The position numbers were made by a program, and so were the translations under genes. DNA of 5,742 nt from a virus (Duplodnaviria; Heunggongvirae; Uroviricota; Caudoviricetes). Shown here in pieces: positions 1 through 5,742 of the stretch; positions within the stretch are counted from its first letter, which is position 1, and the number at the start of each line of letters is the position of its first letter. The notes beneath the pieces were generated by a model. It searched no databases. It was not told where the DNA came from and saw only the letters and a program-made list of their open reading frames with translations. Location of the stretch: positions 1 to 5,742 of IMG/VR virus record IMGVR_UViG_2671180294_000016, one strand, 5' to 3'.

Positions 1-1392
1 ATGGACTTACCTTCTTTACCTTCTCTTTCTTCACTCTTTTCTGCATCTTCAGGTATCAATTGGCGCGATAATCTTTACGACGCTTCATTTCGTGGCGTTC
101 CGTTTTCGGTGGAGAGCGACGAGGGTTCGTTCGGACGCCGCGTTCAGGTCCATGAATACCCAAACCGTGACAAACCGTACACGGAAGATCTCGGGCGTGC
201 CACGCGACGGCTGACGATTAATGCGTATCTCGTTGGTGATGATTACGCAGAGCAGCGCGACAGGCTGATTACAGCGATTGAAACCGCCGGGCCGGGGACG
301 CTGATCCATCCGCAGTTCGGTGAAATGCAGGGCTGTATTGACGGGCAGGTGACCGTTTCTCACTCCGGCACTGAAGGCCGTATGTGCCGGGTTTCATTTC
401 AGTTTGTTGAGAGCGGGGAACTGTCATTTCCGGTCGCCGGAGCTGCAACCGCCAGAAAACTGGAGGAGTCGTCCGTATTCCTGGATGAGTTGATTGAAGA
501 CATGTTCGGCGATTTTGATCTCGCGGGAATACCGGACTTTATTCAGAACGATGTTATTGCCCGGACGACCGATATGCTGGGAACCGTTCAGACAGCTTTC
601 AAAATGGTTAATTCGGCTGTTTCTGCCGGAGCGAGACTACTGCAGGGCGATTTATCCGTCATTCTGATGCCGCCGTCGGTTGCCAGTGATTTTGTGCATA
701 CGTTGCAGGATACCTGGCGGGCCGGAACCCGGCTGGTGGATAACACACAGGATCTGGTGCAGTCCATAACGACAATGTCCGGCATTACGCTGGACCCAGG
801 ACTGGCACCGCGTGCGGTGTGGCCCACAGATTCCGCATCGGTTATCAGGCAAAAACAGCAGACAAACCTTGTGGCTGCTGTCATCCGGACGACGGCAATC
901 AGCGAAGCCACAAGGGCGGTCACTTCACTGCCACAACCCGGAAGCCTGGTGAAAAATCAGCAGGCGGTTGTGGCTGTTGGTGGTTCCACTGAACGTCAGT
1001 CCGATATTATTCACGTTTCTCATCCGGCACTTGACAGCGTGGCAGCCAGCACAGGACAGGATGAGAGAGCGCAACCACCCACGCGGGAAAATCTCACCAT
1101 CATACGCGAATCGCTGAACGCGGCGATTGAACAGGAGCTCAGGCGTACGGCGGATGACAGGCTGTTTTTTCAGCTGACGTCATTACGTACAGAACTGAAC
1201 CGGGATATTCAGGCGCGTCTGGTTCAGACGGAGGAAACCGCAGAGCGAACGCCAGCGGAAGTTCTGCCTGCGCTTGTTCTGGCTGCGTCATGGTACGACG
1301 ATGCGTCCCGTGAAACTGATATCCTGGATCGAAATGCCATCTCTCATCCGGGCTTTGTTCCGGTCAGGGCATTAAGGGTACCCGTCAGATGA
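1..1392 (+). CDS. Phage tail protein, Mu gpN-like DNA circulation protein (contractile-tail/baseplate module)
   Basis: 463-aa ORF starting at ATG at position 1 with TGA at 1390-1392. Residues ~20-110 (WRDNLYDASFRGVPF...HEYPNRDKPYTEDLGR...AYLVGDDYAEQRD...GPGTLIHPQFG) match my recollection of the conserved N-terminal domain of Mu N-type proteins. Stop overlaps the next start in an ATGA motif. The first ~20 codons are CT-rich and low-complexity, so the true start is uncertain and the gene could be 5'-partial. Confidence 0.75.
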   Translation: MDLPSLPSLSSLFSASSGINWRDNLYDASFRGVPFSVESDEGSFGRRVQVHEYPNRDKPYTEDLGRATRRLTINAYLVGDDYAEQRDRLITAIETAGPGTLIHPQFGEMQGCIDGQVTVSHSGTEGRMCRVSFQFVESGELSFPVAGAATARKLEESSVFLDELIEDMFGDFDLAGIPDFIQNDVIARTTDMLGTVQTAFKMVNSAVSAGARLLQGDLSVILMPPSVASDFVHTLQDTWRAGTRLVDNTQDLVQSITTMSGITLDPGLAPRAVWPTDSASVIRQKQQTNLVAAVIRTTAISEATRAVTSLPQPGSLVKNQQAVVAVGGSTERQSDIIHVSHPALDSVAASTGQDERAQPPTRENLTIIRESLNAAIEQELRRTADDRLFFQLTSLRTELNRDIQARLVQTEETAERTPAEVLPALVLAASWYDDASRETDILDRNAISHPGFVPVRALRVPVR

Positions 1393-2465
1393 ATGATACC
1401 GTTTTACTTCGGGTTTCCGGTCGCGAATGGGGCGGCTGGACATCCGTCCGTATCAGTGCGGGCATTAACCGTATTGCCCGGGATTTTAATGTTGCCATTA
1501 CCACCCGCTGGCCCGGAAGCCGGGATTATCAACCCCGGATAAAAAATGGTGAGCTGGTTGAAGTGCTTATCGGGGATGAGCCTGTGCTCACCGGATATGT
1601 GGAGGCACTACCGCTTCGTTATGACGCCAGCAGCGTCAGCATGGGAATTGTCGGGCGAAGCAAAACAGCCGATCTGGTTGACTGCTCTGCTTTGCCACTC
1701 CAGCAGAGCGGAAAAAACCTGCTCAGAATAGTCAGTGAACTGGCTGCGCCATTTGGCATCACCGTTGTTGATGCTGGCGTGCCGCAGACAGCGGTGATTG
1801 ATGCCCAGCCGGAACACGGCGAAACCGTTGCCGATTGTCTTAACCGGTTACTGGGGCAGGTTCAGACGCTGGCTTATGACGATGAATGCGGGCGACTGGT
1901 TCTGGGAAAACCCGGAACAGGTAAAGCGGCGACGGCGCTGGTGCTGGGAGAGAATATTCTTTCCTGTGACACGGAAAGAAGCATCAGAGAGCGGTTTTCT
2001 GAATATCAGGTCAGTGGGCAGCGCCCGGGCAACGACGATGATTTTGGTGAGGCCACCATTGCCGCAATACGTCAGACCATTCAGGACAGTGGCGTGACCC
2101 GTTATCGCCCTTTGTTGATTCAGCAGTCAGGCACAGCAACGACAGCAACCTGTAAGGCCCGTTGTGAATTTGAAGCGCGCCAACGGGCTGCGCTTACCCG
2201 TGAGACAACATATACGGTTCAGGGCTGGCGGCAGGGCAGTGGCGCGTTATGGCGTCCGGGGTTATCTGTCATCGTTTTCGACCCGCTGAATAATTTTGAT
2301 AATGATGAACTGGTGATCGCAGAAGTTACCTATAACCAGGACGACCGGGGCACGACGACTGAATTACGGGTTGGCCCGGCAGATGCTTATCTCCCCGAGC
2401 CTGTTACCGCCAGGAAGAAAAAAATGTTGAGGAGGATTTCTGATGAACGGGTTTTCTCTTCGTAA
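1389..2465 (+). CDS. Phage tail/baseplate hub protein, Mu gpP-like (late control D family)
   Basis: 358-aa ORF; ATG at 1389 overlaps the upstream stop by 4 bp (translational coupling). Its position between the N-like and V-like genes and its size fit the Mu-type baseplate order N-P-Q(gp45)-gp46-gp47. Family assignment is by position and general similarity, not by a run alignment. Confidence 0.7.
   Translation: MNDTVLLRVSGREWGGWTSVRISAGINRIARDFNVAITTRWPGSRDYQPRIKNGELVEVLIGDEPVLTGYVEALPLRYDASSVSMGIVGRSKTADLVDCSALPLQQSGKNLLRIVSELAAPFGITVVDAGVPQTAVIDAQPEHGETVADCLNRLLGQVQTLAYDDECGRLVLGKPGTGKAATALVLGENILSCDTERSIRERFSEYQVSGQRPGNDDDFGEATIAAIRQTIQDSGVTRYRPLLIQQSGTATTATCKARCEFEARQRAALTRETTYTVQGWRQGSGALWRPGLSVIVFDPLNNFDNDELVIAEVTYNQDDRGTTTELRVGPADAYLPEPVTARKKKMLRRISDERVFSS
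2429..2435 (+). promoter_or_regulatory. Shine-Dalgarno sequence (GAGGAGG) for the gp45-like gene
   Basis: GAGGAGG lies 7 nt upstream of the ATG at 2443, inside the 3' end of the preceding ORF. This supports 2443 as the real start and an internal re-initiation site. Confidence 0.6.
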
Positions 2466-2976
2466 TCTGATTTCCCGGGCTGTCATCACGGCGGTGGATT
2501 CCGCCAGAAAGTGTCAGTCTGTAGGGTTGAAAATGATAGCCGGAGATCAGAAACAACACGTTGAGCACCTTGAACCTTATGGTTTTACATCTGCCGCACA
2601 GAACGGTGCTGAGGGCGTTGCTTTATTTCCGGCGGGCGATCGTTCTCATGGTGTGGTTGTGGTCGTGGCTGACAGACGTTACCGGCTGAAAGGACTGAAA
2701 CGTGGGGAAGTGGCGCTTTATGACGATCTGGGACAGTCCGTTGTCCTGACCCGTTCCGGTATTGTGGTGGACGGGGCCGGGAAGGCCATAATTTTTAAAA
2801 ACGCGCCTAAAGCGCGCTTTGAAATGCCAGTCGAATCCACCGCCGATATTACTGACAATTGCGACAGTGGCGGACTCAGCATGCAGCAAATGCGGCAGGC
2901 CTACAATGCCCACAAACATACCGAAAATGGTGATGGTGGCGGGATCACTGACACGCCGGATCAACCGATGGGCTGA
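2443..2976 (+). CDS. Baseplate assembly protein V-like / Mu gp45-like baseplate spike
   Basis: 177-aa ORF with a strong SD and a 23-bp overlap with the upstream gene. Motifs EPYGFTSAAQNGAEGVALFPAGDRSHGVVVVVADRRYR...GEVALYD resemble the gpV/gp45 spike family as I recall it. Confidence 0.75.
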   Translation: MNGFSLRNLISRAVITAVDSARKCQSVGLKMIAGDQKQHVEHLEPYGFTSAAQNGAEGVALFPAGDRSHGVVVVVADRRYRLKGLKRGEVALYDDLGQSVVLTRSGIVVDGAGKAIIFKNAPKARFEMPVESTADITDNCDSGGLSMQQMRQAYNAHKHTENGDGGGITDTPDQPMG

Positions 2977-2981
2977 AAATC

Positions 2982-3392
2982 ATGATGATTAATGTTAACG
3001 GGCGACCCGTGTCGACCGGGGCTTCGATCGACCTTCTGACGCGTGCTGTGATTATTTCGCTTTTTACATGGCGGCGTGCCGGGCGTGATGATGCACCACG
3101 GATATTTGGATGGTGGGGGGATACCTGGCCTGCGGTTCAGAATGATCGCACGGGGTCGCGTTTGTATCTGTTGCGACGCAGCAAGCTGACAAATAAAACC
3201 CCGCAGCTTGCCAGAGATTATGTCCGTGAGGCGCTGGCGTGGATGGTGGAGGATGGTGTTGCTTCCCGTCTTGATATTAACGCTGTCCGGACCGGGACAG
3301 ACTCGCTGGCACTTGCCATTACCATTTACCAGCGTGACGGCAATATTCACAACATTATTTTTGATGATATCTGGAGTGAACTGAATGGCTGA
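2982..3392 (+). CDS. Mu gp46-family baseplate protein
   Basis: 136-aa ORF starting at ATG 2982 (or 2985), 5 bp after the upstream stop. Its size and position between the V-like and J-like genes fit the GP46 family. The SD is weak. Confidence 0.65.
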   Translation: MMINVNGRPVSTGASIDLLTRAVIISLFTWRRAGRDDAPRIFGWWGDTWPAVQNDRTGSRLYLLRRSKLTNKTPQLARDYVREALAWMVEDGVASRLDINAVRTGTDSLALAITIYQRDGNIHNIIFDDIWSELNG

Positions 3393-3978
3393 CAGTCAGT
3401 TTTATCGCCCCGGCCTCCCGCAACTTATTTCTATGATCCGGAGCGATTTATTAACCCGCTTTGAGCAGGATACGCTGCTTCGTCGTATGGATGCGGAAGT
3501 GTATGCCCGTGTACAGGCTGCAGCCGTACACACGTTGTACGGGTATATCGATTATCTTGCCAGAAATCTGTTACCGGACGTGTGTGATGAAGACTGGCTG
3601 TACCGGCACGCCAGAATCAAACGCTGCCCGCGAAAAGAAGCGGTGGCAGCCCGGGGATTTGTGCGCTGGGATGGCGTAGAGGGGACGCCGGTATTGCCAG
3701 CGGGAACGCAGATCCAGCGTGATAATCAGGTGACCTTTACCACGACGGCGACGGTGACCGCAGCCGATGGTCTTCTCCGGGTGCCTGTTGTGGCAGACGA
3801 ACCGGGATCGGCGGGGAATACGGATGATGGTATTGCCATGCAACTGGGAACACCCGTCAGTGGTCTGCCGTCCACAGGGTACGCTGACACCATTACAGAC
3901 GGTGAAGATATTGAAAATCTGGAAATATGGCGTGCCCGCGTTATGGAACGTTATTACTACATTCCACAGGGGGGCGCA
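3385..3978 (+). pseudogene. Baseplate J-like (Mu gp47-like) gene, 3'-truncated by IS1 insertion
   Basis: ATG at 3385 overlaps the upstream stop by 8 bp, with GGAGTG 6 nt upstream. The N-terminal motif RRMDAEVYARVQAAAVHTLYGYIDYLARNLLPD is typical of baseplate J-like proteins. Native coding stops at 3978, about 198 codons, against roughly 350 expected. The 224-aa ORF in the track (to 4059) gets its last ~27 residues from read-through into IS1. Confidence 0.75.
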
Positions 3979-4324
3979 GGTAATGACTCCAACTTATTGA
4001 TAGTGTTTTATGTTCAGATAATGCCCGATGACTTTGTCATGCAGCTCCACCGATTTTGAGAACGACAGCGACTTCCGTCCCAGCCGTGCCAGGTGCTGCC
4101 TCAGATTCAGGTTATGCCGCTCAATTCGCTGCGTATATCGCTTGCTGATTACGTGCAGCTTTCCCTTCAGGCGGGATTCATACAGCGGCCAGCCATCCGT
4201 CATCCATATCACCACGTCAAAGGGTGACAGCAGGCTCATAAGACGCCCCAGCGTCGCCATAGTGCGTTCACCGAATACGTGCGCAACAACCGTCTTCCGG
4301 AGACTGTCATACGCGTAAAACAGC
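3979..4324 (-). mobile_element. IS1 insertion sequence, partial (terminal inverted repeat through ~346 bp, then gap)
   Basis: 3979-4001 GGTAATGACTCCAACTTATTGAT is the IS1 terminal inverted repeat. The following sequence matches the IS1 interior as I recall it and encodes the InsB C-terminus on the minus strand. The element continues into the N-run, so its other end is not visible. Confidence 0.95.
3994..4324 (-). CDS. insB: IS1 transposase InsB, C-terminal fragment (5' part lost in gap)
   Basis: Minus-strand translation ...[109 protein letters not shown] matches the InsB C-terminus; stop is the reverse complement of 3994-3996. The 133-aa ORF in the track (3994..4395) is a chimera spanning the N-gap. 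Confidence 0.9.
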
Positions 4325-4335
4325 NNNNNNNNNNN
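4325..4335. other. Assembly gap (11 N) joining IS1 interior to integrase interior
   Basis: A literal run of 11 n. The left flank is internal IS1 sequence and the right flank is mid-gene integrase sequence, so an unknown amount of DNA is missing. Confidence 0.98.
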
Positions 4336-4336
4336 G

Positions 4337-5008
4337 AAAAACACAATGGCAGGATCAATGCGTTCTGTGTTGTCTGATATGTTTCGCGAGGCCATTGTTG
4401 AAGGACGTATATCTCAAAATCCAGTCACGCCAACAAGAGCACCGAAAATAGTAGTTACAAGAGAACGACTGAAACTAAAGATATACAACTGCATCAGGGA
4501 GGCAGCAGATCAACTTCCGGCATGGTTCCCATTAGCTATGGATTTAGCCCTTGTAACAGGACAACGTCGCGAAGACATAACGAATATGCGGTTCAGTGAT
4601 ATTTATGATGATCGTCTCCACGTCAGGCAAATTAAGACAGGAATGATGATTGCTATCCCCCTGTCACTCAGCCTTCCTGTCGCTGGTCTACGGCTTGGTA
4701 CAGTAGTTGAACGATGCCGCCTGGTAAGCCGGGGAGATTATCTAATCAGTGCCGGGATTAGAAAAAACAGCCCTGACGGCAGCATTCACCCGGATGGCCT
4801 GACAAAAAAATTTGTCGCAGCCAGAAAATTCACAGGTATCCAGTTCAGTGAAAACCCACCAACTTTTCACGAGATCAGAAGCCTGGCTGGACGATTGTAC
4901 AAAGAAACATGTGGAGAAGAATTTGCTCAGCGTCTACTTGGCCACACATCGGAGAAGACAACAAAAATGTATCTTGATGAGAGAGAAAAAACGTACTTAC
5001 TGCTCTGA
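4337..5008 (+). CDS. int: Tyrosine recombinase, lambda Int family, 5'-truncated at the gap (C-terminal catalytic domain)
   Basis: Frame is open from the first base after the gap. The translation aligns from memory with lambda Int from about residue 160 to the C-terminus ([16 protein letters not shown] / AIP / [14 protein letters not shown] / [13 protein letters not shown]). The catalytic positions R, K, H-x-x-R, H and Y are all present. TGA stop at 5006-5008. The ATG at 4346 is probably not the real start. Confidence 0.9.
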
Positions 5009-5084
5009 TTTTAACGTAAATGGATTGTTAAATGTATTTTGGTTGTGATATAACCAAAAAGACCGGAATACAGAAATTCGAGTA

Positions 5085-5104
5085 AATTTCGGGGAATTTC
5101 GGGG
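5085..5104 (+). repeat. Perfect tandem direct repeat AATTTCGGGG x2 between int and the sRNA 3' end
   Basis: 5085-5094 and 5095-5104 are identical decamers. The position between the int stop and the presumptive att core makes them candidate arm-type recombinase binding sites, which is inference only. Confidence 0.45.
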
Positions 5105-5114
5105 GAGACATTTG

Positions 5115-5127
5115 CAACTAATTGATT
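5115..5127 (-). promoter_or_regulatory. IHF consensus-like site (WATCAANNNNTTR) in the att-proximal spacer
   Basis: The reverse complement of 5115-5127 is AATCAATTAGTTG, matching WATCAANNNNTTR. It sits in AT-rich DNA between int and the SdsR 3' end. A chance match is plausible. Confidence 0.3.
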
Positions 5128-5139
5128 TCAAATGCAATT

Positions 5140-5174
5140 AAAAAAAGACCGAATACGATTCCTGTATTCGGTCC
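5140..5174 (-). terminator. Intrinsic terminator of SdsR (hairpin GACCGAATAC...GTATTCGGTC plus U-run)
   Basis: A 10-bp perfect stem at 5148-5157 / 5165-5174 with a 7-nt loop, followed on the minus strand by 7 T (plus-strand A-run 5140-5146). Confidence 0.8.
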
Positions 5175-5242
5175 AGGGAAATGGCTCTTGGGAGAGAGCC
5201 GTGCGCTAAAAGTTGGCATTAATGCAGGCTTAGTTGCCTTGC
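5140..5242 (-). ncRNA. sdsR: Small RNA SdsR (RyeB)
   Basis: The minus strand reads GCAAGGCAACTAAGCCTGCATTAATGCCAACTTTTAGCGCACGGCTCTCTCCCAAGAGCCATTTCCCTGGACCGAATACAGGAATCGTATTCGGTC followed by a T-run. This matches the enterobacterial SdsR/RyeB sequence as I recall it, including the terminal hairpin. Exact ends are approximate. Confidence 0.85.
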
Positions 5243-5248
5243 CCTTTA

Positions 5249-5255
5249 AGAATAG
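5249..5255 (-). promoter_or_regulatory. Candidate sigma-S-type -10 element (C-TATTCT) for sdsR
   Basis: On the minus strand, CTATTCT ends 6 nt upstream of the presumed SdsR 5' end (G at 5242), with C at -13. This fits the sigma-S extended -10 pattern and the known RpoS dependence of SdsR. No clear -35 was examined. Confidence 0.45.
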
Positions 5256-5329
5256 ATGACGACGCCAGGTTTTCCAGTTTGCGTGCAAAATGGTCAATAA
5301 AAAGCGCGGTGGTCATCAGCTTAAATGTT

Positions 5330-5371
5330 AAAAACCGCCCGTTCTGGTGAAAGAACTGAGGCGGTTTTTTT
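5330..5371. terminator. Bidirectional intrinsic terminator between ryeA/sdsR and yebY
   Basis: A GC-rich stem (CCGCC..GTTC / GAAC..GGCGG) at about 5335-5364 is flanked by A5 upstream and T7 downstream, so it can terminate on both strands. It lies 30 bp past the yebY stop on the minus strand. Confidence 0.8.
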
Positions 5372-5400
5372 ATTGGAAATCAAAAGGCTATTTTAGGTAA

Positions 5401-5742
5401 TTAACAGAGTTTTTCAGCTCGTTCTATAAACGGTGCCAGACTCATTTTTTCGCCGGGATTGTTAGGATCATCAATCTGAATCACCGAAATGGGTTGGGCA
5501 TTGGTCTTCCCACTGGCAACTTCCTTTTGTGCGATATCGTTTAAAGGATACTGCACGAGGGTACTCGGATTAATAACATACAAAGCATTACCCGGTCGGC
5601 AAGTCAGCATCACCTCTTCGCGATTAAACGCCCATTTGTCTTTACCCACTTCAAAACGACTGACGGTAATCACCTGCGGTGCAGCCAGCGCCGCTGCAGA
5701 ACTGGTGAGTAACAGAAACGCCAGAATACTTTTTTTCATCAT
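5401..5742 (-). CDS. yebY: YebY, DUF2511-family secreted/periplasmic protein
   Basis: 113-aa minus-strand [27 protein letters not shown]..., with a typical Sec signal peptide and an A-x-A cleavage motif. It matches E. coli YebY as I recall it, the gene that flanks ryeA/sdsR in K-12. The start codon is at the window edge and the RBS lies outside the window. Confidence 0.85.

Follow-up and report, generated by a model that had tools for sequence, protein, structure and literature searches.

Genes at the junction

The window, that is, the whole stretch of 5,742 nucleotides analyzed here, starts with five Mu-like tail and baseplate genes (positions 1-3978) encoding a DNA circularisation protein (DNA_circ_N), GpP/gp44, gp45, gp46, and a truncated baseplate J protein, and continues with an IS1 end (3979-4324) and an assembly gap of 11 N (4325-4335). 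Beyond the gap, the plus strand encodes the 220 C-terminal codons of a tyrosine integrase (4346-5008; Pfam PF00589, E 1.9e-16), with its stop codon at 5006-5008 and its N-terminal part lost at the gap and IS1. In complete genomes, this int gene is intact (358 aa) and an excisionase gene (xis) lies ahead of it. A non-coding segment of 130 nt (5009-5138) separates the integrase stop from a phage attachment (att) core. The core is followed by sdsR (ryeB) on the minus strand (5140-5243), by the overlapping part of ryeA that is collinear with K-12 ryeA on the plus strand (5139-5373, about K-12 RyeA nt 38-272), and by yebY on the minus strand (5401-5742; Pfam PF10709, E 2e-45), the conserved host gene flanking sdsR, annotated in K-12 and in the lysogens. 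An assignment of the Mu-like tail genes (1-3978) to the same prophage was dropped: no complete genome of E. coli joins them to the sdsR-site integrase, and the gap of 11 N falls within the IS1 copy. The adjacency is probably a scaffolding artefact within the IS1 repeat and, since the Mu-like genes and the integrase are unjoined in complete genomes, the left 4.3 kb may be a mere scaffolding neighbour.

SdsR is a conserved sigma-S-dependent regulator with ompD, tolC, and mutS among its targets, and RyeA limits it in two ways, by pairing and by transcriptional interference. Rfam reports full-length RyeA/SraC at 5136-5280 on the plus strand (RF00101, 179.1 bits against a gathering score of 37, model positions 1-145) and SdsR at 5140-5239 on the minus strand (RF00111, 118.1 bits against a gathering score of 38). 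The start of the RF00101 model coincides with the att core, where conservation between RyeA genes stops. The sdsR limits given above combine RF00111, the K-12 annotation mapped at offset 3535, and alignment, those of ryeA alignment and RF00101. RyeA thus lies opposite SdsR with full antisense overlap, as the first-pass annotation of this DNA had it: both RNAs are matched by Rfam, the complementarity to SdsR is complete in ryeA 5139-5373, and the terminator before yebY is also kept. This plus-strand terminator (5335-5371) consists of a hairpin (5335-5364) and a T-run (5365-5371), and the RyeA 3' end maps to ~5362-5373 (K-12 annotation, offset 3535; 3' ends from Choi et al. 2019, PMC6610125). 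The interval singled out by the first-pass annotation, 5009-5371, runs from the first base past the integrase stop codon to the RyeA terminator. In pairwise alignment, the window and K-12 are collinear over 5139-5400 with four substitutions, two of which (5145 and 5154) fall in the core and two downstream.

Attachment site and crossover in the sdsR terminator

A four-way comparison of attR (window), attP (PP818812), attB (K-12), and attL (NZ_CP074868) delimits the att core, present here in its attR form, to 5139-5170, with the sequence TAAAAA[A/G]AGACCGAA[T/C]ACGATTCCTGT[A/T]TTCG. The phage genome PP818812 contains window positions 4346-5170 at 95.9% identity and then runs into different DNA, its P arm, which is the attP form. 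The attL was taken from the complete lysogen NZ_CP074868, that of the present strain lying outside the window. In this lysogen, pphA is found ~49 kb left of int. Next to it come the ryeA promoter, intact and of the K-12 type, and the 5' end of RyeA, and then the core and the P arm. Of the three core positions at which phage and host differ, the window is of the phage type at 5145 (A) and 5154 (T) and of the host type at 5166 (A); the attL is its exact reciprocal at all three. Because of this reciprocity, strand exchange is placed within 5155-5165. The core shared by attP and attB, together with the reciprocal alleles, bears out the earlier assignment of the att core to the SdsR 3' end. The segment GATTCCT (5157-5163) is the 7-nt loop of the SdsR terminator and is flanked by the inverted arms GACCGAATAC / GTATTCGGTC of the terminator stem, which form a perfect inverted repeat of 10 bp in the RNA fold of SdsR. 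It is probably the 7-bp overlap, and a crossover in the terminator loop is the geometry typical for integrases aimed at RNA-gene hairpins.

With the crossover within 5155-5165, the phage encodes the SdsR 3' terminus over ~15 nt, a stretch made up of the U-tract and the 3' half of the terminator stem. The first-pass annotation had taken everything left of about 5140 as phage DNA; phage DNA is indeed found there, with a boundary that has to be moved ~15 nt further right, into the SdsR 3' end. Likewise, ryeA from 5139 to ~5154-5165 is phage-supplied att-core DNA, and only the part right of the crossover is host-derived. As compared with K-12, SdsR differs at two phage-supplied positions (5141-5154, minus strand): a stem A-U replaces a G-U, and the tail contains seven uninterrupted U versus CUCUUUUU, with five U, in K-12. 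The predicted fold is the same as that of K-12 (-32.5 kcal/mol for both), and both Hfq binding and termination might be influenced by the altered 3' end of SdsR.

Phages that integrate in tRNA or tmRNA genes carry a copy of the 3' end of the gene, and the RNA is restored. The present system makes the same use of a hairpin stem as inverted core-type sites and of a 7-nt loop as overlap, and SdsR stays intact. In contrast, the sRNA targeted here is Hfq-dependent and overlapped by an antisense gene, and restoring the one inevitably re-equips the other.

Two features of the reference sequences are worth recording. PP818812.1 (L004) has been deposited as "Actinobacillus phage vB_Apl-pPE4", and its integrase and attP are 96% identical to those of the E. 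coli prophage described here; given that its target is the sdsR terminator of enterobacteria, the assigned host is questionable. In NZ_CP074868, the displaced host ryeA promoter and RyeA 5' end at attL (L006 20036-21618) point into the phage end. The type III effector gene nleG7 is located on the same strand ~800 nt downstream of this promoter, and no terminator-like site was found between the two.

The P' arm and the start of RyeA

The RefSeq annotation of K-12 places ryeA at 1923066-1923337 (plus strand) and sdsR at 1923104-1923207 (minus strand), so that RyeA starts 38 nt left of the sdsR 3' end. The K-12 RyeA +1 has been mapped by primer extension and RACE, and RyeA is abolished when the -10 is changed to CTCGAG, the mutagenic primer identifying this -10 as TATGGT (Choi et al. 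2019, PMC6610125). In pairwise alignment, similarity of the window to K-12 begins at 5139, and all DNA left of this position is unrelated to K-12. The K-12 ryeA promoter and RyeA nt 1-38 are therefore missing: neither the promoter (TGtTATGGT) nor nt 1-38 was found in the window, and 5009-5138 is unrelated to the K-12 segment L001:1471-1604. An equivalence between 5009-5138 and the K-12 RyeA leader was likewise rejected, as the two do not align. A RyeA transcript of this strain can therefore begin only within phage DNA and, as read from the sequence, is not of the K-12 type (272 nt) at its 5' end. These results support the earlier proposal that the promoter and 5' segment of RyeA are supplied by the prophage: over the interval 5009-5140 suggested for comparison, 5009-5138 is not K-12 sequence, the K-12 +1 and -10 map to DNA that has been replaced by the P' arm with its putative phage promoter, and the start site mapped from the K-12 data does not fall to the right of 5175.

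In lambda attP, the core is followed by the H' IHF site and by the P'1-3 arm sites adjoining int. The window segment 5009-5138, aligned with 26 other SdsR-adjacent arms from species ranging from Citrobacter to Yersinia and Pectobacterium, reads as a lambda-like P' arm. Three tandem 10-bp arm-type repeats (AATTCGAGTA, AATTTCGGGG, AATTTCGGGG; 5075-5104, plus strand) are putative Int arm-binding sites P'1-3, and three phased TTTCGnnn repeats occur in all related arms. Within the window, the arm-type motif AATTTCGGG is confined to 5075-5104; outside it, a copy is found in the P arm of attP (L004 1370-1378) and another in that of attL (L006 20309-20317). An IHF-like site, AATCAATTAGTTG (consensus WATCAANNNNTTR; 5115-5127, minus strand), is predicted between the arm repeats and the core, and most related arms display (T)ATAAATCAA-type sequences at this position. 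At the outer edge of the arm lies a copy of the left core half (5056-5071; AAAAAGACCGGAATAC versus AAAAAGACCGAATAC in the core). The half-core block is found at the equivalent position in the 26 aligned arms, well conserved in most and degenerate in several, and an extra stretch of ~45 nt between the half-site copy and the int stop codon is present only in the subgroup of the window. Lambda attP and window 5009-5170 therefore share the order of their elements and have arm-type repeats on both arms; the window, whose sites are predicted ones, differs by the additional core half-site copy at the outer P' end. Since 5009-5138 is such an arm, its conservation is mostly explained by recombination functions. 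The conserved GGTTGTGATATAACC was also considered as a terminator and rejected, its stem being 4 bp long, without a T-run, and the hairpin not conserved in Salmonella arms.

A consensus promoter scan of 4800-5450 did not return any plus-strand site. A position-weight scan reports two candidates, TTAACG-N18-TATTTT (5011-5040, 8.6 bits) and TTGTTA-N18-TGaTATAAC (5025-5054, 8.1 bits), the validated K-12 PryeA obtaining 7.8 bits by the same score. Neither candidate is significant by its score, because sites of at least 8 bits occur about once per kb per strand (1.1 in the window). The second, composed of TTGTTA (5025-5030), an 18-nt spacer, and a putative sigma-70 extended -10, TGa TATAAC (5046-5054), all on the plus strand, is the better candidate for the RyeA promoter. 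Five arms that were not selected by this motif (the window, Pseudescherichia L021, Citrobacter L010, Trabulsiella L029, and the Salmonella prophage ZC-S1_prp) retain the -35-like hexamer, the TG, the TATAA, and their spacing, while the spacer and the n of TGn vary. The hexamer and spacing are also kept in ~20 viral contigs, presumably from Salmonella, the host flank of which is ~74% identical to E. coli; as these contigs were picked by a 30-mer that includes the -10, their -10 is no independent evidence. On the other side, TATAAC has a C at -10 position 6, where a T is highly conserved, the score does not rise above the background of AT-rich DNA, and promoter-like sites on the plus strand are not enriched in the P' arms of the integrase family as a whole (mean 7.6 versus 7.4 bits; z ~0). 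The conserved promoter-like block could instead be a binding site for a recombination protein. Relative to the K-12 TATGGT, TATAAC is 40 nt more distant from the core. If it serves as the -10, RyeA is predicted to start at ~5060-5062 and to measure ~311-313 nt, with a phage-derived leader of ~78 nt (5061-5138, plus strand) in place of the 38-nt K-12 leader. Homology between the window-type TGTGATATAAC box and the K-12-type TGTGTTATGGT box is suggestive and would need a deletion of ~18 nt; being unsupported, it was dropped.

Taken together, the window is best interpreted as including the attR, the right-hand boundary of a lambdoid prophage (or of a remnant of one) whose tyrosine integrase would recombine within the sdsR terminator hairpin. 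Integration would rebuild the final ~15 nt of SdsR out of phage DNA, move the host ryeA promoter and RyeA nt 1-38 to the far prophage end (attL; ~49 kb away in one complete lysogen), sever sdsR from pphA, and fuse the RyeA gene body (5139-5373) to the phage P' arm. We consider it likely that RyeA then starts in phage DNA, most likely at ~5061, from the extended -10 promoter right after the int stop (TTGTTA-N18-TGaTATAAC). The resulting RNA, ~311 nt against 272 nt in K-12, would remain antisense to the whole of SdsR. With its promoter and leader exchanged, RyeA would be expected to change in level and timing, as would the transcriptional interference on sdsR and the SdsR/RyeA ratio.

This interpretation has a close precedent in the work of Balbontin, Figueroa-Bossi, Casadesus & Bossi (2008; J Bacteriol 190:4075), known to us through PMC7380047, PMC3333887, and PMC3603311. 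As reported in PMC7380047, the att site of Salmonella enterica lies in the last ~23 bp of ryeB/sdsR and is internal to ryeA, in agreement with the crossover at 5155-5165, and lysogeny by phiW104 was shown experimentally to bring ryeA down and ryeB up. As far as these sources describe it, the Salmonella system (phiW104 and older islands at the ryeA/ryeB locus) involves the same site, a replaced ryeA 5' part with changed RNA levels, and repeated use of the locus. It follows that replacement of the RyeA 5' end by a prophage is a principle already established in Salmonella, of which the window provides an E. coli case; the latter differs by its host, by a distinct P' arm, and by a crossover mapped to the terminator loop, and is known from sequence alone. 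The ryeA/ryeB locus is also listed as a phage target in Salmonella (PMC3603311) and Cronobacter (PMC3680222). In K-12, inactivation of the ryeA promoter makes SdsR appear earlier and at a higher level and raises sdsR read-through ~4-fold, which is attributed to transcriptional interference, and sdsR and pphA form a dicistronic read-through transcript (PMC6610125). In view of these K-12 promoter-loss data and of the phiW104 data as cited in PMC7380047, a shift of the RyeA/SdsR balance in the present strain is plausible.

A second reading, unlikely but the most serious competitor, holds that the P' arm contains no working rightward promoter and that RyeA is effectively silent, leaving SdsR without its antisense partner and expressed earlier and higher. 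The empty consensus scan, the background-level score of the candidate, and the lack of enrichment of promoter-like sites across the integrase family all fit such a reading, as does the drop of ryeA upon phiW104 lysogeny in Salmonella (PMC7380047, citing Balbontin 2008). However, the TGnTATAA(C/G) element keeps its hexamers and spacing while its spacer varies, and SraC is readily detected in Shigella and Salmonella. Frohlich et al. 2012 (PMC3333887) report that the RNA of these genera exceeds that of E. coli by ~35 nt because its -10 box is displaced upstream by ~35 bp. The promoter varies by species, and the window predicts an addition of 39-41 nt, near the published ~35; this tie between the window promoter and the longer SraC of PMC3333887 is indirect, and an undeleted promoter of the integrase-derived kind described below, 36 nt further upstream than in E. 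coli, fits equally well.

According to a third reading, which we regard as improbable, the RyeA region is transcribed mainly by read-through from xis-int (or IS1), as the 3' part of transcripts that end at the RyeA terminator, and not from a promoter of its own, in which case SdsR pairing would act on the integrase mRNA, similarly to the sib retroregulation of lambda. The int gene shares the strand of RyeA and stops 130 nt short of the core, and the plus strand is devoid of any terminator-like site from 5008 to the RyeA terminator; however, int is truncated here at the gap and IS1, and its expression in a lysogen is assumed to be low by analogy with lambda. Lastly, the idea that the sequence left of 5139 is a divergent, non-phage host allele of the pphA-sdsR spacer, for which only the general variability of this spacer among species could be invoked, is refuted by its presence in the phage PP818812 (4346-5170 at 95.9%, running into P-arm DNA), by the adjacent integrase gene, and by the reciprocal attL with pphA ~49 kb away in a complete lysogen.

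Relation of the K-12 ryeA promoter to integrase genes, and spread of the insertion

The 3'-terminal ~20 codons of Enterobacter-type integrases can be aligned with the promoter region of K-12 ryeA (L001:1493-1560), which lies on the same strand and at the same position relative to the core. These integrases end in ...TKKYLDARGAEYVMV*, encoded by ...AAATACCTGGACGCACGCGGTGCAGAGTATGTTATGGTTTAG. A nucleotide profile of the int 3' end, run against 157 kb of E. coli DNA, returns the window-type int first (E ~5e-6), and the K-12 promoter region is the best non-integrase match (E 0.005, the next one being at E 0.25 in these 157 kb). Against 108 species arms, the same profile gives 52 matches, 28 of them at loci with int or a remnant and 24 at int-less loci. 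The E-values of the int-less matches extend from 1e-22, for pseudogene stubs of Enterobacter and Pseudescherichia, through 7e-4 for E. coli, to ~5e-3 for the weakest. In these 24 sequences, the A-tract, CTGGAC, and TGnTATGGTTTA are conserved and the 17-nt spacer varies, which makes a promoter-like pattern, unlike that of a decaying reading frame. The combination TGGAC-N17-TGnTATGGT occurs with constant spacing in 27 of the 108 loci; with an intact int, 79 nt separate it from the core, and in E. coli, which has lost the arm repeats, the distance is 43 nt.

By analogy with lambda Int, we take the Y of the integrase terminal ...K-Y-L-D-A-R-G-A-E-Y-V-M-V-stop to be the catalytic residue. Because the codons concerned encode this presumed catalytic tyrosine motif, common to the whole family, the direction of descent would have to be from the integrase to the host promoter, and the reverse route, with phages capturing a host promoter, appears unlikely. 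We therefore lean, with some reserve, toward the view that RyeA is phage-born everywhere and that the K-12 promoter (CTGGAC-N17-TGtTATGGT) derives, as a selectively retained fossil, from the ~20 terminal codons of an integrase gene that targeted SdsR. Selection would have kept this promoter in E. coli and many Enterobacteriaceae after the remaining prophage had decayed, and each new integration would swap one phage-derived RyeA 5' module for another. If this is true, an antisense sRNA gene arose from phage integration modules and has been repeatedly rebuilt by them. No paper stating an integrase-fossil origin of the ryeA promoter was found in the literature searched, and Balbontin 2008 may touch on the origin. 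Relative to the published systems, the present analysis adds the precise att anatomy, a specific candidate promoter and start site, and the evidence for an integrase fossil in the "native" RyeA promoter.

All 5426 complete E. coli genomes match the window rightward of 5139. The attB is intact in 5191 of them and split in 235 (4.3%), and 228 of the 5426 possess the int-side junction of the window, the carriers including strains of the O111 and O121 serogroups. The RyeA of these carriers, about 4% of the complete genomes of E. coli, should therefore differ from that of K-12 in length, promoter, and timing; the carriers also differ in the SdsR 3' end and lose the sdsR-pphA co-transcript, and K-12 results on SdsR and RyeA are not transferable to them unchecked. 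Among 120 species representatives with an SdsR core, a sample of loci outside which Salmonella and Shigella fall, an integrase of the same family or a protein-detectable remnant adjoins the SdsR 3' end in 28.

Individual assemblies exhibit further variation at this site. In the O121 genome NZ_CP119441 (L002 20098-20795), IS1 is inserted close to the int 3' end at the sdsR locus. In another E. coli assembly (L135 3681-4766), the site is occupied by a different integrase of the same family (361 aa), the end of which is ~54 nt nearer to yebY. Several IMG/VR contigs (L156, L147/L151, L145/L160, and L169/L176) have two copies of the P'-arm 30-mer, at least one of which lies beside phage P-arm DNA rather than SdsR; the two arm copies per contig therefore point to tandem or successive insertions at the sdsR site.
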